From Ignavibacteriota bacterium (GTDB lineage Bacteria > Bacteroidota > Ignavibacteria > Palsa-1295), in contig CAWBEI010000004.1 of assembly GCA_963787835.1 (NCBI GenBank), positions 96,001 through 160,000 on the forward strand: a DNA stretch of 64,000 bases. Reading direction: 5' to 3'. The notes below the pieces were generated by a model. The model was not told the origin of the DNA. It made no database searches and worked only from the letters and a program-made list of their open reading frames with translations. Positions 10,937-49,388 of the stretch are shown in pieces. A program made the position numbers and the translations under genes. Position 1 is the stretch's first letter, and each line of letters starts with the position of its first letter.

Positions 10937-11009
10937 GCCGGCGTAGCTCAGTTGGTAGAGCAGCTGATTTGTAATCAGCAGGTCGTCGGTTCAAGTCCGT
11001 CCGCCGGCT
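10937..11009 (+). tRNA. tRNA-Thr(TGT)
   Basis: Acceptor stem GCCGGCG/CGCCGGC; anticodon arm GCTGA-TTTGTAA-TCAGC; GGTTCAAGT T-loop; no encoded CCA. Confidence 0.97.
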
Positions 11010-11016
11010 CTTTTGA

Positions 11017-11090
11017 CAATTAAGAATTAAGAATTAAGAATTAAAAGTGACGAATTCAACTTTTAATTCTTAATTCTTAATTCTTAATTG
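11017..11090. repeat. Heptamer inverted-repeat hairpin in tRNA spacer
   Basis: (AATTAAG)x3-AATTAAAAGT ... ACTTTT-(AATTCTT)x3-AATTG; long, near-perfect stem. Confidence 0.85.
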
Positions 11091-11095
11091 TCCTC

Positions 11096-11178
11096 GGGCA
11101 GATACTCAAGTGGCCAACGAGGACAGACTGTAAATCTGTTGACGATAGTCTACGAAGGTTCGAATCCTTCTCTGCCCA
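11096..11178 (+). tRNA. tRNA-Tyr(GTA)
   Basis: Acceptor stem GGGCAGA/TCTGCCC; anticodon arm ACAGA-CTGTAAA-TCTGT; long variable arm; GGTTCGAAT. Confidence 0.97.
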
Positions 11179-11183
11179 CTTAT

Positions 11184-11279
11184 TCAATTAATAATGAAGA
11201 ATTGAGAATTAAGAATTACGGAATCGGGTTTTGGGCCCTGAGTTCAATTCTTAATTCTTAACTATTAATTCTTAATTGA
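11184..11279. repeat. Heptamer inverted-repeat hairpin in tRNA spacer
   Basis: Degenerate AATTAAG repeats followed by inverted AATTCTT repeats, bounded by TCAATTAA/TTAATTGA. Confidence 0.8.
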
Positions 11280-11286
11280 ACCGCCG

Positions 11287-11359
11287 GCTCACGTAGCTCA
11301 GTTGGTAGAGCACATCCTTGGTAAGGATGAGGTCACCGGTTCAATCCCGGTCGTGAGCT
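11287..11359 (+). tRNA. tRNA-Thr(GGT)
   Basis: Acceptor stem GCTCACG/CGTGAGC; anticodon arm CATCC-TTGGTAA-GGATG; GGTTCAATC. Confidence 0.97.
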
Positions 11360-11493: not shown

Positions 11494-13602
11494 GTGATAT
11501 TTCTCGGCCTCCACATTCTCGATTGGGCGATCATCGCACTCTACCTCGTTGCGCTGATCCTGATCGGCCGGTGGACGCAGCGGCGCGCCAGCCGATCGAC
11601 GAAGGATTTTTTTCAGGCCAATCGCAGCTTCGGCCGAGGAATTATGGGATTCCTGAATTTCGGCAATATGGTCTCAGCCGATCAGGCTGCTGGTGTAACA
11701 CGCGAGATCTACCGTCAGGGGTTGCAAGGAGTATGGTTCCAGAATCTCGTTCTGTTCATCACTCCATTTTATTGGTTCACATCGGTGCTGCAACGCCGTG
11801 CGCGTTACATCGGCCCTGGTGATATTTATGAACATCGATTCGAATCGAAATTTCTCGGAGGGCTTTTTGCTGTTTATCTTCTGCTTGCCTCGATCTATGG
11901 TTCCTCGATCGGGTATCTCATTACCGGTAAAACATTACAAGCTGTGATGTTAAAGCCGCCAGCAGCTTACACGATGCAAGAAAAACAAAGCGTAGCCCAG
12001 TTTCAGGAAATGCGCGCGATGGATATTGCTGCACAAAATGGAACACTCTCTGATTCTCTCAAACCGCGACTTTCGCTTTTGCATGAGAAAGAGCACACAG
12101 GACAAATTTCTGGGACGATCTCCTATCTCGACCTCGTAACGTTTTATTTGATCTATGGATGCGTGACGGCTGCGTATGTCATCATGGGAGGACTGTTCGC
12201 CGCTGCGTTTACCGATGTGATGCAGGGAATTATGATCATTTTCCTTTCTACAATTTTGATTCCAGTCGGTCTGACGAAGCTTGGCGGATTTTCCGGCCTT
12301 CATGCGCGCGTTGCAGACGATATGTTCCATTTGTTCGGTAGCGGCGCTGGTAGTGAATACACGTGGTGGTTCGTCGCGACAATGGTGCTGGTAAATCTGA
12401 TCGGTCTAGCACCTCGAAGCTTTACGCTGGGTGGTGCTGCAAAGGACGATAATTCTGCTCGCGTGGGAATGATAACAGGAGCATTCGTCAAGCGACTGGT
12501 GATGGTTGGGTGGGCACTCACGGGACTCATTGCCGTCGCACTGTATTCTGGCAAGCTTTCGGATGCTACCTATATCTGGGGAACGATGACACAGGATCTT
12601 CTCGGAGTTGGGTTTGTAGGTCTAATGATCGCAAGTGTGCTTGCGGCGAATATGGCATCGAAAGCATCTTCAAGTCTTGAATGGTCTGCGGCGTTCACTA
12701 AGAATATACTGGTGCCATTGCGTCCAAACACATCTGAAAAAACGCAGATTTTGGTCGGGCGCATTGTGATATTCATTGTCCTTATTGCAGGTATAGGATT
12801 TGCCTACATGGTCGATGATATTTTCGTCGTCTTTAAGTATGTGCTTTCGATTGGAACCATCATTGGCCCGTCGATCTGGCTGGTGTATTTCTGGCGACGG
12901 CTCACGACAAAAGCAGTGATCGTTCAAATGCTGCTTTCAATAATGGTTACGGTGGTCGTCCCGAACATCATCCCGCTTATCCCGTCGATTACGTCCACGC
13001 CGTCCATGACCATTATGACGCATGCCCGGGAACAGCATGAAACAACGAAAGCGAAACAAGACGATGTAAAAAGTGGAGCTGCACTTTACATTGGTGAATC
13101 AATTACGAAAGTTGAGCGAGAAGAACCCGTCGGAGTTTATTTTGAGAACATCGTTCATACCGATCCGTCCGACCCACATTCACAATTGCGGGGAAGTGGC
13201 ATGTTCCGATTTCAACTATGGCTCGTTGGGCTGACTGGAATTGATCTAACCGCCTTTTCTAAGGCAGGTCTTTCAGCACTTTCCTTTCTTTTCGATATTA
13301 TTTTTCCATTCCTGGTTCTATTTGTTGTAAGTTTATTCACAAAGCCCAATAGCGAACTGGTTTTGAGAGAATTTTATGCTCGAGTGCATACTCCGGCTGT
13401 TGCAGATCAAGAGAAAGATGCTATCGAAGTGAAAAAGCGCGTTGAAGATCCTTCGCTTGTCGAACAGGATAAGATGTTTCCTGGCACCAATTGGGAATTT
13501 TGGAAGCTTACGAAGAAAGATATGATGGGCTTCGGGCTATGCTGGCTTGGCGTAGGAGCGATAGTCTTACTATATATCGTTCTTACACAATTAGGATCAT
13601 AA
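11494..13602 (+). CDS. Sodium:solute symporter (SSS) family transporter with two large hydrophilic insertions
   Basis: LDWAIIALYL...KDFFQANRSFG; YVIMGGLFAAAFTDVMQG; about 13-14 hydrophobic segments. Confidence 0.92.
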   Translation: MIFLGLHILDWAIIALYLVALILIGRWTQRRASRSTKDFFQANRSFGRGIMGFLNFGNMVSADQAAGVTREIYRQGLQGVWFQNLVLFITPFYWFTSVLQRRARYIGPGDIYEHRFESKFLGGLFAVYLLLASIYGSSIGYLITGKTLQAVMLKPPAAYTMQEKQSVAQFQEMRAMDIAAQNGTLSDSLKPRLSLLHEKEHTGQISGTISYLDLVTFYLIYGCVTAAYVIMGGLFAAAFTDVMQGIMIIFLSTILIPVGLTKLGGFSGLHARVADDMFHLFGSGAGSEYTWWFVATMVLVNLIGLAPRSFTLGGAAKDDNSARVGMITGAFVKRLVMVGWALTGLIAVALYSGKLSDATYIWGTMTQDLLGVGFVGLMIASVLAANMASKASSSLEWSAAFTKNILVPLRPNTSEKTQILVGRIVIFIVLIAGIGFAYMVDDIFVVFKYVLSIGTIIGPSIWLVYFWRRLTTKAVIVQMLLSIMVTVVVPNIIPLIPSITSTPSMTIMTHAREQHETTKAKQDDVKSGAALYIGESITKVEREEPVGVYFENIVHTDPSDPHSQLRGSGMFRFQLWLVGLTGIDLTAFSKAGLSALSFLFDIIFPFLVLFVVSLFTKPNSELVLREFYARVHTPAVADQEKDAIEVKKRVEDPSLVEQDKMFPGTNWEFWKLTKKDMMGFGLCWLGVGAIVLLYIVLTQLGS

Positions 13603-13603
13603 C

Positions 13604-15571
13604 ATGCCGCAATCACTTCATCCTGACTTCAAAACGACGCTTCCCGATACCGATTATTTTTTCCTCGGCTCTGGGCAAATTCAGGCGGCAATCCAATGGA
13701 GCCGCCATCCGGGAGCAACTCCACTTGGGTTAGTCCTTTCCGATCCTACTCATTTCGCGCGCAAGTGGTCTTCTCATCTGTTCCATCCAGAGTATGGTCT
13801 TGGTAAAACAATGCTTACACTTATTCTCGACGGTGAGCGGTATCAACCGGACGAGAATACCAAGGTTGTTTGGTTCCCGGGCGAGATTCCCGGTGTAACC
13901 GCACTGTGGCAAGCAAAAAATTCTTTCGTGATCGAGCGGTTCTGGACTTCCATCGACGAGCCGGTGTTGGTGCGAGAAATTACATTTGAATCCGAACGGC
14001 AACTTACCTCCGCCGAGGTGGAAATAGCGCTGTTTGGGAACCCCGCATTATGTTCAGAGTTTCTTGGGAGTAGTTATGGGCTTTCGGCAAGGGGGTATGA
14101 TGCTGTGCTTGTCAGCACACACGCTCCTGGCAAGTTCCACGAGCGGACGCTAACGGTGCCGCTCTATCAGGAAGGTAATGTGTATCGCATGGCCATCATG
14201 TACTCACTTGGGCCAGATATGCCAAGCGTAAGTCTCGGACAGCTCACGGAGAATGAAACGGACTATTGGCGAACCACTTGTTTGAGATGGACCGAGCCGC
14301 ATCCTCATCAACTACATCACGAGATCGAGCGATTGTTTACTTCTTCTGCGATGGGATTGCGCGCTGCTGTGGCCGATGATGGGCGCTTCGATGCAAGTAT
14401 CTGGCAATATGGCTATGAATGGTCCGGCGATGCCTCGAATGTCGCTGAGGCGCTGGTCTATTCCGGGCAATTCGAAGTAGCGCGGTGCGTGCTGGAAAAT
14501 ATTTTGACGAGGATGACAATTCCCGAAGGAATGGCGATGGAATCGAGCAGGTTCCGTGGTGGTCAGGATGCAGAGCTAAACAATAATGGCGAAATTTTGA
14601 AAGCCTGCAGAACCTATCTTGATTGGACAGGAGATCGGGAATTTATCGAAGTACATTATGATCGAATTGCCGCCATAGCAGATTATTTATTGAGACCGGA
14701 ATTTTTGCACGAGGAAACCGGAATGCTCGTAGCCTCTCGCGATATTTGGGAGCGAAATGCCGAGGTAGGTATTCTTCTTGGCTTCGATATTGCGCATCAA
14801 ACATTTGGCATCCTCGGGCTTCGTGATGCCGCCAATATCGCAAAAGCATTTTCCAGAATGGATGATGTGGAACGCTGGACTACCGCAGGAAAGAAAATGC
14901 GCCAATCGTTTCTCGAACATCCAACCCACTCGATGATCGAAAATAATCGCATTATCAAACGGCGATTGCTGGATGGTTCTATTCAAACTGAACTTTCCAT
15001 TGCAAATATCGACAAAGATTTTCAAAAGCAGTTCGTTCCAAATGGAATGCCGCTTGCAACGAGTGGGCCAAAGTCATGGGAACCTGACATCTCCGAATGT
15101 TTTCCTATTGCGCTCGGGGTTATCGATCCACGATCGGATGTTGCAAAAAATACGATCGAAGCAATGGATTTGCTTTGGTCGCAAGGGTGGGAGGATGGCG
15201 GATATGGAAGATACAATGTTCTATCCGAGCCCGATTCCCCAGGCCCGTGGCCGCTTGCGACCATGTATGTTGCTGCAGCATGTCTGGAAGCGGGAGACGT
15301 AGAGCGTGGGCAGCGTGCAATTAGTTGGCTCATCGAGAAGGCGGGAGCAGGTGGCAGTTGGTTCGAATTTTACGGCGATCGGCCAACACCGCCGCTGCCG
15401 CCGACGGGAATTCTTGTCTGGGCGTGGGCGCAGTGGATAACGCTTGTCGTAAAACATCTCTTGGGTGCTCAAGTCAAGGACGATCAATTAATTATTCGTC
15501 CTCGACTCGGCGGTTTTTCAGGCGAGCTTCGTTTTAGAGATTCGAGTGTTCCTCTACCGAACGGAATGTAA
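13604..15571 (+). CDS. Cytoplasmic six-hairpin glycosidase-like protein (GH15-like)
   Basis: YGYEWSGD, DIWER, GYGRY, PWPLAT and WFEF occur in the order of GH15-like (alpha/alpha)6 motifs; no signal peptide; 1 nt after the SSS gene. Confidence 0.65.
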   Translation: MPQSLHPDFKTTLPDTDYFFLGSGQIQAAIQWSRHPGATPLGLVLSDPTHFARKWSSHLFHPEYGLGKTMLTLILDGERYQPDENTKVVWFPGEIPGVTALWQAKNSFVIERFWTSIDEPVLVREITFESERQLTSAEVEIALFGNPALCSEFLGSSYGLSARGYDAVLVSTHAPGKFHERTLTVPLYQEGNVYRMAIMYSLGPDMPSVSLGQLTENETDYWRTTCLRWTEPHPHQLHHEIERLFTSSAMGLRAAVADDGRFDASIWQYGYEWSGDASNVAEALVYSGQFEVARCVLENILTRMTIPEGMAMESSRFRGGQDAELNNNGEILKACRTYLDWTGDREFIEVHYDRIAAIADYLLRPEFLHEETGMLVASRDIWERNAEVGILLGFDIAHQTFGILGLRDAANIAKAFSRMDDVERWTTAGKKMRQSFLEHPTHSMIENNRIIKRRLLDGSIQTELSIANIDKDFQKQFVPNGMPLATSGPKSWEPDISECFPIALGVIDPRSDVAKNTIEAMDLLWSQGWEDGGYGRYNVLSEPDSPGPWPLATMYVAAACLEAGDVERGQRAISWLIEKAGAGGSWFEFYGDRPTPPLPPTGILVWAWAQWITLVVKHLLGAQVKDDQLIIRPRLGGFSGELRFRDSSVPLPNGM

Positions 15572-15576
15572 GTAAT

Positions 15577-16098
15577 ATGAAGGTCATCGTTATTTTTGTC
15601 ACAACGCTCGATGGAAAGATCACGAAGTGGGGCGATCTTCACGTGATGCGATGGTCCTCGCCCGAAGACCAGAAATACTTCCGAGCGATCTGGAACGATA
15701 GTCCGCTCATTATCATGGGAAGCAGCACGTTCGATTTCGATCCGATAAAACCCTCGCGGAAAAGTCTTCTTCATATCATGACGCGGAATCCCGAAAAATA
15801 TAAAATATACGAGGTTCCGGGAGAATTGGAGTTTTCGAGCGAAACGCCTAGGGAATTAGTGAAACGATTTGGATCGCAGTTCGAACAAATGCTCGTCGTT
15901 GGAGGGCCGCACGTTGCGACATCTTTTTTTAAGGATGGTCAGGTTGATGAGTTGTGGCTGACACTCGAACCTAAGATTTTCGGCGAGGGAGGGAATTTTG
16001 CGGTCGGAGCAGATCTTGACGTTGAGCTTTCCCTCATCAGTATGGAAAGAATGAACGACCGCGGGACATTGATTTTGAGATATCAAGTCATAAAATGA
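15577..16098 (+). CDS. Dihydrofolate reductase/RibD C-terminal domain protein
   Basis: TTLDGKI, IIMGSSTF, VVGGPHV, VDELWLTLEPKIFGEG. Confidence 0.9.
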   Translation: MKVIVIFVTTLDGKITKWGDLHVMRWSSPEDQKYFRAIWNDSPLIIMGSSTFDFDPIKPSRKSLLHIMTRNPEKYKIYEVPGELEFSSETPRELVKRFGSQFEQMLVVGGPHVATSFFKDGQVDELWLTLEPKIFGEGGNFAVGADLDVELSLISMERMNDRGTLILRYQVIK

Positions 16099-17225
16099 AA
16101 TTTCAATTCTCGTCATTGCGAGGACAAGCAAGGTGGCGACGAAGCGATCCCTCGTGGATTTGGTTGACCCGTGCAGATTGCTTCGTCGTCCCTTCGGGAC
16201 TCCTCGCAATGACGGTATTATTATTATTTGCTTTTCCGATCTATGCTCAGCATCTGCGCATCTTCGCCTGTGCCATAGCCAACGATAGCACTGGTGCATC
16301 CATGGGTGGAAGCTCCAATGGTTCCGGACTCTACCAATCCGACGATACCGGCAAAACTTGGAAGCATTTGGGATGGGATAATATCAAATGCTACTCGATG
16401 GACATGGTGCAGTCCTCGAATGGCCGCATTCTCTACGAGGCCACCGGCCTCGGCATTCTGCACTCCACCGATTATGGCGAGCACTGGAAGCAGATCACCG
16501 ATTGGCGCATCTCCGAAGCAATGGATGTTGCTGTCAATCAAAAAAATCCGAATGAGATATACATTGCCACAGCGCATGGGCCGTGGAGGAGTGAGGATGG
16601 GGGGAAGACCTGGGAGGCATTACTGGAGGGATTGCCTGTTCCATACACATGCAGAATTGTCATTGATTCAGTAATACCGAATCATGTGCTTGTTGCTTCG
16701 GAAGCAGGTATTTTCGCTTTGTGGAACGATACTTGGATAATAATTCCATGCGAGCAAAAGAATATTCGAAATGAGAAGGAAAAAACTCCAACCGAAATTC
16801 GATTCATCGATCAACTATCTCAGGATATCTGGCTTGCAGCAAGCGAGAACTCTCGGGAGTTGATTTCGTCGGACTCTGCGAAATCATTCGGCACTCCCAG
16901 CTTCGGTGACGAGGGTTTATGGACAATTTCTTCAATTTCACTCGGGCGAGACCATGACGTGACTGCGATGGGAGGAGGTTGGGGACATGCCATTTCTGAT
17001 AGGAACGATGATGAGGTTCGACAGTTCCGGGATGACAAAATAAAAAATGTCAGCAGCATTCTTCAAATTCCTATTCCGTATGATATGGGAAGTAGCTCTC
17101 ATGCCATGGGATTGTATAGTAGCCCGATGTTCGGCACACTTGGGGATGGAATTCCATGGAATGGTAAATCAAAGCTTTTTGACCGTCAAATCTGGACGCT
17201 CAAATCCTTCCTCGTCACGCCATGA
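16095..17225 (+). CDS. Secreted BNR/Asp-box repeat protein; signal peptide interrupted by an in-frame palindromic element
   Basis: SDDTGKTW, STDYGEHW and SEDGGKTW Asp-boxes; ATGA overlap with the downstream gene and 4-nt overlap with the upstream gene. Confidence 0.8.
   Translation: MKFQFSSLRGQARWRRSDPSWIWLTRADCFVVPSGLLAMTVLLLFAFPIYAQHLRIFACAIANDSTGASMGGSSNGSGLYQSDDTGKTWKHLGWDNIKCYSMDMVQSSNGRILYEATGLGILHSTDYGEHWKQITDWRISEAMDVAVNQKNPNEIYIATAHGPWRSEDGGKTWEALLEGLPVPYTCRIVIDSVIPNHVLVASEAGIFALWNDTWIIIPCEQKNIRNEKEKTPTEIRFIDQLSQDIWLAASENSRELISSDSAKSFGTPSFGDEGLWTISSISLGRDHDVTAMGGGWGHAISDRNDDEVRQFRDDKIKNVSSILQIPIPYDMGSSSHAMGLYSSPMFGTLGDGIPWNGKSKLFDRQIWTLKSFLVTP
16111..16214. repeat. CGTCATTGCGAG-family palindromic element, copy 1 (intragenic)
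   Basis: Perfect 14-bp terminal inverted repeat CGTCATTGCGAGGA/TCCTCGCAATGACG with inner GACGAAGCGATC/GATTGCTTCGTC stem. Confidence 0.9.
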
Positions 17226-19042
17226 AAAACGCATCGTGTAGAACCGAACCTTTATGTTCGGTCGGCAAATCCGCCCGACCTAAAGGTCGGGCGCTACACG
17301 TTTTTCTTTTTCTCCTGCTGCCACTGCAACTTCAGGCACAATCCACACAAACAAAAACCCGCGTCCTCGAGCACATTGCATCCATCCCACTCCGGAATGA
17401 TTTTGCAATGGTTGCGGCGAGAATTCATCAGAATATCGGTGTAGAAAGGGCTTACAAACAGCTCGATACGCTTCTCTCACGCGCGTATGGCGATATGTTC
17501 TGGATGTATGGCTGCGCGGGGCTTTATTATGCAACGGCGGATGTGCTGCGTCCGCAATACAAAGCGCGCATTCGAGAGTGCTGGAAGCATTGCACGCCCT
17601 ATCGCGGCGATACGGAGAATCATTTTCTGATGTATTACGGCTCGCTCTTCCTGATGGCGCAGGCGTGGCCCGATCTGCCGGATACAGCATGGTTTATGGG
17701 CAAATCGTCGAAGGAAATCTATGATGAATCGAAAGAATATCTCGATCACTGGATCGACGAGACTGTCCGTAATGGGCAGGAAGAATGGGATTCGCCACGC
17801 TATGGCTATTATTATATCACGCCGCTTGCGCTGCTTGCTGAACACACCAAAGATAAGCGCATGAAGCACCGCTTTTCGATGATGCTCGAATACGAGCTTG
17901 CATCTTACGCCGCCGATTACCTGAATGGGAGCTATTGCGGTGCACACTCCCGCGTCAGCGATGAATGCGCCATTGATCCGCACTCTGCCGAGATCGAAAC
18001 GTATGGTAATTATTTCTTCGGTGAAGATGGCGGCGAGGCGCGATTGGATACGCTCGCCGCAATGCATCCCGACATTGCGTTCGCTGCAATGACAAGTTTC
18101 AAATGCCCCGACATCATCTGTCATATTGCGACCGATCGTTCAGAGAGCTATGAGCAATTCTCGCTAAAGCGAGGACGGCAAATGCTGCGTTACTTAGGTG
18201 AGTGGAGCAGCACAGATTCCAGCCATGATTCCACCTTCCATGCGCCGGTCTATAAATACGATTACATGACGAAGGATTACTGCCTTGGCTCGATGCAAGG
18301 AGGAATTGTGCAGCCGATACAGCAGCAATCCTGGTCGCTTGTCTTTAATTCGGATAAGCACCATAATATTATTACGGGACTCAATCCTTACGTGAGCGCA
18401 GATGAATTGGGAATGTTCTTTCCTGAATATCCCAGCTTTATGCTCGAACGCATCGGCTCGACAAAAGCCAGCTACACAAGCGAGAACAAATGGGAAGGCG
18501 GCTCGCCGTACGAGCATATTTATCAGGATAAGAATGTGCTCGTCGCGTTGTATGATTTGCCGGATAGCGAGAAGTATCACCACATTGACCTTTATATTCC
18601 CGATTGTTTGACTCCCATTGGCCCTAATCCTGACTCAAATAAGCGAACGTGGCATTGCCCTCCCGGATGGAGACTCTATCAATCCGATTCCGTGTTGGTT
18701 GGAATCTATATGTTCAAAGGGTACACCACCGATTCTACATTATTCGGTACCCGATTCACTTCCGACGACAGTAATTCTGGGTACATCATATTATGCGATG
18801 ATCGTAGAGATTTGTCTGTGAATGAATTTGTCAATAGAGTAGGTAATCTCGCAATTGTTAGAACGCCAGAACGAATATATTCAAAAGGTGATGATCTACA
18901 TACAATAAACATAGAATTGAAGGAAGGAAAGCGGGATGCCGATCGGCTCTTCCATTCCCCTTATCTCGAATCGAACAAAGGCAGCGGTATTCTAACCATG
19001 CGCTATAAGGGTGCGTTGCGGGTGCTGGATTTCAGGAATTAG
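17222..19042 (+). CDS. Secreted hypothetical protein, possibly an (alpha/alpha)-toroid lyase/heparinase-like fold; signal peptide interrupted by a REPIN
   Basis: 606-aa ORF with helical N-half carrying TENH, EWDSPRY and GAHSR motifs and a beta-rich C-half. The fold call is an inference. Confidence 0.55.
   Translation: MKNASCRTEPLCSVGKSARPKGRALHVFLFLLLPLQLQAQSTQTKTRVLEHIASIPLRNDFAMVAARIHQNIGVERAYKQLDTLLSRAYGDMFWMYGCAGLYYATADVLRPQYKARIRECWKHCTPYRGDTENHFLMYYGSLFLMAQAWPDLPDTAWFMGKSSKEIYDESKEYLDHWIDETVRNGQEEWDSPRYGYYYITPLALLAEHTKDKRMKHRFSMMLEYELASYAADYLNGSYCGAHSRVSDECAIDPHSAEIETYGNYFFGEDGGEARLDTLAAMHPDIAFAAMTSFKCPDIICHIATDRSESYEQFSLKRGRQMLRYLGEWSSTDSSHDSTFHAPVYKYDYMTKDYCLGSMQGGIVQPIQQQSWSLVFNSDKHHNIITGLNPYVSADELGMFFPEYPSFMLERIGSTKASYTSENKWEGGSPYEHIYQDKNVLVALYDLPDSEKYHHIDLYIPDCLTPIGPNPDSNKRTWHCPPGWRLYQSDSVLVGIYMFKGYTTDSTLFGTRFTSDDSNSGYIILCDDRRDLSVNEFVNRVGNLAIVRTPERIYSKGDDLHTINIELKEGKRDADRLFHSPYLESNKGSGILTMRYKGALRVLDFRN
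17238..17297. repeat. 60-bp GTAG...CTAC REP doublet (REPIN-like), intragenic
   Basis: GTAG-A-ACCGAAC-CTTTAT-GTTCGGT, short spacer, then CGCCCGACC-TAAA-GGTCGGGCG-CTAC. Confidence 0.85.
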
Positions 19043-19412
19043 CGCCAGGTAAATAGCTTAATAGGTCAGGGAACTCTGCTCGGAAAATATGAGTACAATA
19101 GCTCCGTAAGGAAGGAGCATCAACCGTTGCAGAATCCCAGACGCGGGGTAATGTGGTGCCCCAATACTCATGGACAATATAATTTCGGAAGTCTTTAATT
19201 CGTACCCAATCGACATTGTGGTATTTCTGTTTCAACTCATTTGAGATGTGAGCCGACGCTTCGCCGATGATTACCAGTTTGTACAAAACGCCACTATGCA
19301 ATAGCTCATTATTCACAAACTCTTCGAAGGACTTCGGACCTTCAAGAAATCCGGCGATCGCATCTGCTGCCTCGATAATATCGATCAAACGGGGTGCATT
19401 AGGTCGCTTCAT
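19032..19412 (-). CDS. HepT-like (DUF86/HEPN) RNase toxin
   Basis: IIGEAS and the RX4HXY motif RNYIVHEY. Confidence 0.92.
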   Translation of the reverse strand: MKRPNAPRLIDIIEAADAIAGFLEGPKSFEEFVNNELLHSGVLYKLVIIGEASAHISNELKQKYHNVDWVRIKDFRNYIVHEYWGTTLPRVWDSATVDAPSLRSYCTHIFRAEFPDLLSYLPGANS

Positions 19413-19707
19413 ATAACGGTTTTATATCGGGGATCGCATAGTCTCGAATAATAGGTTTCAGACCGTGGCGAGGTGCGAGGTCAACTGGCACTCCAAACAA
19501 CTGCGAGAGTTCATCGCGAAAGCGGCCATATCCGATAAGACCCAGAACGGTATCCGGTAAAAATTCCACGAGGAGATCGACATCGCTGTCGGGACGGTTA
19601 TCTCCGCGCGCGCGCGAGCCAAAGACCGATAGTTCTTTCACCCGGTATTTTTGGCAAATAAGCTGAAGTTCCGCTTCGGGAACCTGTATTCCTGGAATGT
19701 GCTGCAT
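19399..19707 (-). CDS. MNT (MntA-like) nucleotidyltransferase antitoxin
   Basis: GSX10DXD motif FGSRARGDNRPDSDVD; overlaps the HEPN gene; start taken at ATG 19707. Confidence 0.92.
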   Translation of the reverse strand: MQHIPGIQVPEAELQLICQKYRVKELSVFGSRARGDNRPDSDVDLLVEFLPDTVLGLIGYGRFRDELSQLFGVPVDLAPRHGLKPIIRDYAIPDIKPLYEAT

Positions 19708-19738
19708 ATCACTAAAACGAATCAAAATGCAAGCCGGT

Positions 19739-49034: not shown

Positions 49035-49056
49035 TGGGATGTAATGATAATATGAT

Positions 49057-49115
49057 GTGTGCAGGGAAGCGCTGCTTCCCGGAGATGGTCACGGAAGCAG
49101 CGCTTCCGTGCACAC
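49057..49115. repeat. GTGT...ACAC REP doublet (REPIN-like), 59 bp
   Basis: GTGTGCAG-GGAAGC-GCT-GCTTCC, spacer, GGAAGC-AGC-GCTTCC-GTGCACAC. Confidence 0.8.
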
Positions 49116-49388
49116 AACACTATGATTTTTGTAGTGGGCGAAATAATTGTCGTATATTAGAGTATGGTATTAAAGGCACCTATTTCTGGGAGAACAAACA
49201 GTGCATAAGTTCATGAAAGAAACAGGGGTGTTCATTAAATGACAATTCAATTGATTACAATGGGCACCTATTCTTGGGGAAAGGATGAAAGATGAATTAT
49301 AAAGTATGAAATGGGAAGAACGATGAAAGCATATCACAACGAATGGCGAATTTCACTTAAAAACGCCATAGTTCATGAAACTCGAATG

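Follow-up and report, generated by a model that had tools for sequence, protein, structure and literature searches.

How can two adjacent genes each hold a different palindromic repeat within the coding sequence of a signal peptide, and why would such repeats be kept there? This question is raised by a 64,000-nucleotide stretch of DNA, here called the window, from an Ignavibacteriota bacterium (GenBank assembly GCA_963787835.1, contig CAWBEI010000004.1, positions 96,001 to 160,000 of the forward strand). Gene A (16095..17225, plus strand) codes for a BNR/Asp-box protein of 376 residues with a predicted 51-residue signal peptide and a mature part that begins at Gln (16248), and its leader contains element 1 (16111..16214, strand not assigned), a CGTC-tagged inverted dimer with a 102-bp core. 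Gene B, on the same strand (17222..19042), codes for a 606-residue protein with a polysaccharide-lyase-like predicted fold, a predicted 39-residue signal peptide and a mature part from Gln (17339), and its leader contains element 2 (17238..17297, again with no strand assigned), a GTAG-tagged inverted doublet of repetitive extragenic palindromic (REP) units. The frames from ATG 16095 and ATG 17222 are open across both elements, each of these ATG codons overlaps the preceding stop as ATGA, and the first base of either element lies 12 nt past that overlapping stop. An earlier reading of this DNA, here called the original prediction, had described element 1 as a 104-bp insert with perfect 14-bp inverted ends and element 2 as a 60-bp GTAG...CTAC doublet, both in frame. 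These coordinates were reproduced, and scripted deletion of the elements gave both remaining peptides as it had described them.

Overall, the best explanation, to which we assign a probability of roughly 55%, is that each element occupies a hairpin-holding gene junction that lies inside a cleaved leader, with the hairpin being retained for a function at the mRNA level.

Unrelated repeat families at the same two leaders

We compared both leaders across 15 genomes of the genus, consisting of the genome under study (G000) and 14 others (G001 to G014), to which L-numbered contigs, metagenome contigs among them, add further alleles; repeat family labels were assigned by eye. The N-terminus of gene A is present in 14 of these genomes (none was found in G013), as is that of gene B (the G007 match is a C-terminal piece). 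A repeat is located at the leader in 11 of the 14 gene A orthologues, and these repeats belong to six families, with a CGTC element in G000 and G014, a GTAG-type repeat in G001, arrays of 9-mers in G002, G005, G006 and G009, arrays of 7-mers in G007 and weakly in G011, a C-rich hairpin in G008 and a composite in G010. The alleles of G003, G004 and G012 are empty and have leaders of 20-23 residues. At gene B all 14 orthologues are occupied, by seven families: the doublet is present in G000, G014, G009, G006 and, as a variant, G008; a CGTC element in G002; a GTAG-type repeat in G012; two families that also flank RAYT genes, one in G013 and G005 and the other in G004; an ATG-rich 9-mer in G011, G001 and G003; and a degenerate repeat in G010. 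The orthologue search proposed in the original prediction thus recovered three empty alleles for gene A and none among the 14 of gene B. Its exact restored junctions are not supported by this comparison, given that the empty gene A orthologues are too diverged for a base-by-base check and that 0/14 gene B alleles are empty.

Judged from these alleles, both sites are hot spots where unrelated repeat families replace one another, which goes beyond what had been predicted. In the gene B tree G000 is sister to G002, and G002 carries a CGTC element at the position where the other close relatives G014, G009 and G006 share the doublet, indicating replacement of one repeat by another and not accumulation. 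The metagenome contig L238 has a CGTC element at gene A in reversed orientation and nested repeats within its gene B leader. Leaders in sister genera are mostly short, yet several distant contigs carry repeats at these sites. As a control, the start of ribD_C is repeat-free in all six genomes that have this gene at the locus. Among contigs from four DNA sequencing runs there is none that bridges either element, and one relative's contig has different letters at both leaders. Two more leaders, at C2:198210 and C2:1564477 of G000, have differing repeats in G000, G002 and G006 and represent further hot sites.

Probable translation through the repeats

Signal peptides were assigned by motif matching and visual inspection, and the 28 alleles inspected revealed the features of Sec export and signal peptidase I cleavage, namely a basic n-region, an uncharged hydrophobic core (h-region), a small-x-small site and homology to orthologues from the following Gln. 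The gene A start is located no more than 25 nt from the upstream stop in 10 of 14 alleles by script and in two more by eye, with open frames in 14/14. For gene B, 11 of 14 alleles start at the -4 overlap and have stop-free leaders of 38-98 residues, while another two start at +11, within the repeat. Read-through of gene B is very likely since these 11 alleles keep the overlapping start with an open leader, and since no in-frame ATG, GTG or TTG is present between codon 1 and codon 63, i.e. none before the mature part. In four genome alleles (gene A of G001; gene B of G002, G012 and G004) the frame used is the only open one of six. These orthologous frames argue that translation begins at the overlapping starts and continues across the elements, as originally proposed, and the orthologous alleles likewise support the cleaved leader as a tolerated site for repeats. 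Taken over both genes, read-through and leader cleavage are very likely.

The same frames bear on the alternative that translation restarts at or after the element, at ATG 16209 (16209..16211, plus strand, in the right stem of element 1) for gene A and at a rare CTG for gene B, which would place both elements in untranslated leaders. ATG 16209 is in frame and is followed by a short hydrophobic stretch, the gene B allele of G001 shows a real restart inside a repeat, and Di Nocera et al. attributed the majority of N-terminal REPs of several species to misannotation (PMC3733652). However, ATG 16209 has a GC-rich context with a mean unpaired probability of 0.35 versus 0.49 at ATG 16095, and a start there would give a 13-residue leader without a basic n-region. 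This is unlike the AT-rich start contexts of G000, where only 12% of 1404 starts have a Shine-Dalgarno-like motif. The overlapping-start frame is also kept across unrelated inserts of up to 98 codons, gene B offers no later standard start before codon 63, and a restart would leave gene A of G014 or gene B of L240 without an h-region. We consider this alternative improbable. The downstream start that the original prediction had named as its own refutation is thus improbable in gene B, whereas ATG 16209 is a possible second start of gene A in G000.

In gene A of G014, and in the gene B alleles of G002, L238, L240 and L250, only 7-9 residues separate the repeat from the cleavage site, which indicates that the repeat itself supplies the predicted h-region. 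This extends the original prediction, because a repeat can apparently replace the h-region besides lengthening the n-region.

Element 1 and the CGTC family

As RNA, element 1 has a predicted folding energy of -57.7 kcal/mol (z -7.66; 0/200 shuffles equally stable). Its right arm, which contains ATG 16209, encodes the first part of the gene A h-region. Each half carries a CGTC or TGTC tag in an inverted dimer, as in CGTC-tagged REPs and Ssn-related motifs, and in each half a longer inner hairpin, enclosed by an imperfect stem, takes the place of the 8-9 bp stem and 4-5 nt loop of the CGTC unit. Element 1 is multi-copy: its subfamily accounts for 58 of the 110 full CGTC elements in G000, and exact 11-mer ends of its type occur 125 times in this genome versus once for a control. 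A sister CGTC subfamily in G000 closely matches the Neisseria NTS motif. The left half of element 1 is found upstream, and the right half downstream, of a small GIY-YIG (ssn-like) gene at C2:1244874-1245089, so that element 1 resembles an Ssn-like cassette in miniature, without the gene.

In G000, CGTC halves of three subfamilies flank four small GIY-YIG genes (C2:1221612, 1256678, 1244874 and 1473150), and at C2:1221612 and 1256678 the right half runs in frame into the leader of the gene that follows. On C5 of G000, another small GIY-YIG gene (67020-67214) has a tRNA-like sequence on one side and, on the other, a second copy of the 3' part of that sequence.

Two points of the original prediction were not supported in this family. 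The suggested CG target duplication is not apparent, as duplications of 2-5 bp among the 110 full CGTC elements do not exceed those in shuffles and a C before with a G after the element occurs in 9/110. Frame-keeping element length is not a general rule either: among 12 CGTC cores that are read through, just 6 have a length divisible by three, which suggests that some leaders were rebuilt and not cleanly extended.

Gene junctions and signal peptides as repeat sites

G000 has a palindromic repeat load of about 230 elements per Mb, as counted with our own repeat library, and 345 of its 1880 co-directional junctions (18%) hold a repeat. CGTC elements are located at a median of 19 nt past a stop, with 70/87 within 30 nt, and in other alleles of the two leaders the repeat lies at a distance of about 12-26 nt (by eye). 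The position of both elements is therefore the usual REP position just past a stop codon, a point absent from the original prediction. When G000 was compared with 2.8 Mb of sequence belonging to three relatives (roughly one third each of G001 and G002 and one tenth of G006), the relative was occupied at 39/103 orthologous co-directional junctions if G000 was occupied versus 26/437 if it was empty. Counting different families only, the values are 20/84 versus 26/437 (p 3e-6), in a test that includes ordinary terminators. On the best reading of these data, the gene A and B sites would be extreme repeat-holding junctions that have been pushed into coding sequence by gene overlap, since it is because the genes overlap that the junction hairpin falls inside a cleaved signal peptide.

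A second pattern concerns what lies downstream. The genome-wide analysis covers G000 and its relatives of the same genus. Of 221 CGTC element ends in G000, 113 face a downstream gene, and those that read through from an upstream start are 12/30 facing signal-peptide genes versus 2/83 facing others (p 1e-6, scored by eye and not blind), with about half of all CGTC ends being stop-free in either of two frames. The hydrophobic frame is the exit frame in 10 of the 12 read-through cases (p 0.026, G000), and the median number of residues after the element is 11 versus 28 in the other frame. A noisier automatic count of all families in four genomes gave 17/131 signal-peptide versus 22/533 other genes, and the fairer automatic contrast, limited to relatives, gave 8/45 versus 12/151 (p 0.09, not significant). 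Thus, the enrichment in secreted genes that had been proposed as a check holds for CGTC elements in G000 and is weaker over four genomes. In the genome-wide test of recurrence among signal-peptide orthologues, 15/262 signal peptides contain an element. We did not rely on the strictest automatic contrast (13/131 versus 1/533), which is biased by unequal search windows, or on a first automatic classing of 1383 orthologue pairs, which was made too noisy for counts by alignments that overran true starts upstream.

Twelve repeat elements, several of them GTAG doublets, are located deep within called genes (e.g. G000 C2:372184, 600386, 846277, 848779 and 1494353; C3:268056; C4:76728). Two genes without a signal peptide, at C2:1634377 and C2:1474269 of G000, likewise appear to start at an upstream ATG and to be read across a repeat. 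In addition, stretches of G000 at roughly 1.85-1.92 Mb on C2 and around 226 kb on C6 are strikingly GC-rich relative to the remaining assembly and are possibly foreign or misbinned.

Conservation of element 2

Element 2 has an RNA fold of -29.2 kcal/mol (z -5.54) and consists of two inverted units, each with a GTAG tag and a short hairpin, as is typical of a GTAG REP doublet; its inverted repeat extends through the flanks to about 17235-17300, leaving its true ends uncertain. A REPIN would be expected in many copies, and element 2 is single copy in G000. Its exact core is present in 3 of the 15 genus genomes, some of which are 80-91% complete, and at this locus only. The same 60-bp insert occupies the same gene B position in G014, G009 and G006, with a variant in G008. 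None of 10 Y1 transposase matches in G000 is flanked by the element 2 REP, and other repeat families do flank Y1 genes. We judge element 2 to be an old orphan of its family.

The doublet is identical at 54-58 of 60 positions among four genomes. At four-fold sites within it, 67/73 are identical over the six pairs of these genomes (pairs that are not independent). The corresponding values are 45-58% for the gene body, 20/31 for the h-region and 36/61 for the first codons of ribD_C. For single pairs, identity is 14/14 versus 96/168 in the gene between G014 and G006 (p 0.001) and 10/11 versus 98/177 between G000 and G014 (p 0.026); genome-wide silent identity of G000 to G006 is 45%.

This silent-site identity is relevant to the idea that the repeat-coded peptide is what is selected, with a long basic n-region, and an Arg-Arg pair in CGTC alleles, changing the export route or rate. 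CGTC left arms do give Arg-Arg-Ser/Asn in the used frame at gene A of G000, G014 and L238, and the doublet peptide is conserved in four genomes. However, the alleles share no common peptide motif, leaders vary from 20 to 98 residues, and conservation of the doublet at silent positions points to the nucleic acid, making this the least probable of the explanations considered here.

A more serious rival is neutral lodging, where repeats are translated and cut off with no benefit to the host, existing hairpins or AT-rich flanks attract insertions and recombination, and stems are kept by self-repair. It would account for the very high repeat load, the 345/1880 occupied junctions, the 72% AT content of the flanks, the nested repeats in the L238 leader, the empty alleles, and the occupancy of one site by unrelated families that differ widely in length and stability. 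It is less able to explain the doublet, which has no second copy in G000 as a repair template and yet retains even its spacer largely unchanged where silent sites elsewhere in gene B are near 50%. Occupancies of 14/14 and 11/14 are also far above the 18% of junctions and 15/262 signal peptides, and a repeat is no longer dispensable where it provides the h-region. We regard neutral lodging as a strong rival, though less likely than the explanation that we prefer.

A proposed hairpin-holding junction inside a cleaved leader

The explanation that we prefer, that of a junction hairpin kept inside a cleaved leader, can be followed as a series of steps. Palindromic repeats of this lineage cluster just past stops, and some junctions are repeatedly occupied by different families. 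At both junctions the ATGA overlap makes the zone past the stop the n-region of the next gene. Translation would then pass through the repeat, and the alleles either keep an open frame to an h-region and Ala-x-Ala/Gln site or take their start and h-region from the repeat. Sec export and cleavage by signal peptidase I would yield normal mature proteins. The repeats may arrive and be replaced via RAYT-type and Ssn-type systems, as genes of these types in G000 are flanked by several of the same repeat families. In the last and least sure step, the hairpin would be selected as an RNA structure that stabilizes the upstream message or dampens translation across the junction, and any family giving a hairpin and an open frame would serve. 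We lean slightly toward such a selected RNA role. We put forward more tentatively, with the odds somewhat against it, that these junctions need a hairpin and not a given sequence, so that unrelated mobile palindrome families would be interchangeable in a dual-coded module, which would control the upstream gene through an mRNA hairpin and at the same time encode the signal peptide of the downstream protein, in the extreme with the entire hydrophobic core.

Several results weigh against the explanation that we prefer. Three gene A alleles, and gene B of several sister genera, are without a repeat, indicating that the hairpin is dispensable. Read-through is not universal, as the overlap ATG of gene B in G001 is out of frame and a restart inside the repeat is needed. 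The junction test did not control for junction length or terminators, signal-peptide orthologue pairs across the genome show weak recurrence (2/5 versus 8/126, p 0.047), and start-stop overlap is not a general predictor of leader elements among signal-peptide genes (4/59 versus 11/203). The distance to the upstream stop is greater for read-through CGTC elements (median 35 nt, n=11) than for those between genes (median 19 nt; p 0.009). Finally, shared palindromes at other junctions, which were picked by shared words, are also 70-100% identical, and the six genome pairs behind the 67/73 value overlap in membership; strong conservation could be a general property of palindromes, explained in part by self-repair of stems.

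It has long been debated whether REP-type repeats are parasites or serve their hosts as tools, and copies at N-termini have been dismissed as misannotation. The orthologous sites described here constitute a natural allelic series of empty alleles, six or seven unrelated families, and repeats supplying a start or h-region, which separates DNA, RNA-hairpin and peptide effects. This series also illustrates one way in which signal peptides get rebuilt, and it carries the warning that start codons in genomes rich in repeats will be misplaced by gene callers.

Gene context of the locus

Genes A and B belong to a co-directional plus-strand cluster that begins with a sodium:solute symporter gene (11494..13602; Pfam SSF, E 5.7e-17). 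This is followed by a glycosidase-like gene (13604..15571) with weak amylase/trehalase matches (NCBIfam TIGR01577, E 1e-9, under cut-off) and a RibD_C/DHFR-like gene (15577..16098) that lacks a signal peptide and whose own TGA overlaps the gene A ATG. The RibD_C gene is present at the locus in 6 of 14 genus genomes, and in most of those without it the glycosidase stop directly overlaps or abuts the gene A start. In G004 (L024), a short palindrome seems by eye to extend the end of the glycosidase gene upstream of ribD_C.

The structure model of protein B (predicted local distance difference test, pLDDT, 85) gave polysaccharide-lyase-like matches in a fold search, with template modelling (TM) scores of only about 0.3-0.44, and a sequence search of PDB with protein B gave no hits. 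Because the model resembles polysaccharide lyases, the cluster of symporter, glycosidase-like, RibD_C, BNR and lyase-like proteins is likely to function in glycan use. Close relatives of protein B among named records are mostly metagenome-assembled genomes of Ca. Kapaibacterium, Ignavibacteriota or Bacteroidetes.

Elsewhere in the window, a HepT-like ribonuclease and nucleotidyltransferase pair of toxin-antitoxin type (19032-19725, minus strand) overlaps the end of gene B, AT-rich heptamer inverted repeats are located between tRNA-like genes (11001-11287), and a 27-bp inverted repeat with 93% complementarity is present at 49053-49119.

Comparison with known systems

NCBIfam holds models of Rickettsia palindromic elements (RPEs). 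The inserts have no match in Pfam, NCBIfam or Rfam, RPE families included, and the Rfam scan returned only weak CRISPR-DR9 matches far under threshold. RPEs lie in frame in intact genes, and N-terminal copies are reported to be expressed (summarized in PMC3733652). Both inserts described here are likewise in frame in intact genes and are probably translated, but they differ from RPEs in sequence and are concentrated in cleaved leaders, not in mature proteins.

CGTC- and GTAG-tagged REPs, intragenic copies included, were described by Di Nocera et al. 2013 (PMC3733652). Our elements share with them the terminal tags, the inverted dimers, several families per genome and in-frame copies, some at the N-termini of open reading frames, although the inner loop of element 1 is much longer than the 4-5 nt stated for CGTC units. 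Most N-terminal copies in that report were held to be probably extragenic. At the present locus the orthologues point to read-through, with unrelated families taking each other's place at a single site. The text of that paper makes no mention of 'signal peptide', and its supplement listing intragenic REPs may hold leader cases.

Ssn-related motifs and NTS-ssnA-NTS cassettes have been reported (PMC11893778), with mobilization by Ssn being presented there as a hypothesis and not as a result. The G000 GIY-YIG genes flanked by CGTC halves, one of them by the element 1 family, resemble these cassettes, while element 1 differs in having no gene between its halves and in lying inside coding sequence. 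Element 2 resembles REPIN-RAYT systems in being an inverted GTAG doublet, and RAYT-like genes of G000 are flanked by families found in the alleles of relatives, but its own family has one copy in G000 and flanks 0/10 Y1 matches.

A single repeat-built signal peptide has been predicted in Yersinia (PMC2759123), where, as here, a repeat-coded hydrophobic stretch contributes to the predicted signal peptide. Unlike that single locus, which was read as a new gene, the genes studied here are conserved operon genes with leaders that different families have rebuilt time and again. In E. coli, REPs located no more than 15 nt from a stop reportedly dampen translation (cited in PMC12306157); both of our elements begin at a similar distance of 12 nt behind the upstream stop, in a zone that here also codes for the next gene, and by analogy they may have a damping effect. 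A possible link of pneumococcal BOX elements to signal peptides found no confirmation in PMC3049150, where 'signal' has 0 hits. A search of full-text literature, with subscription papers outside its coverage, found no paper on multi-family repeat turnover inside signal peptides. In-frame palindromes are already known, both from Rickettsia and from the REPs of PMC3733652.

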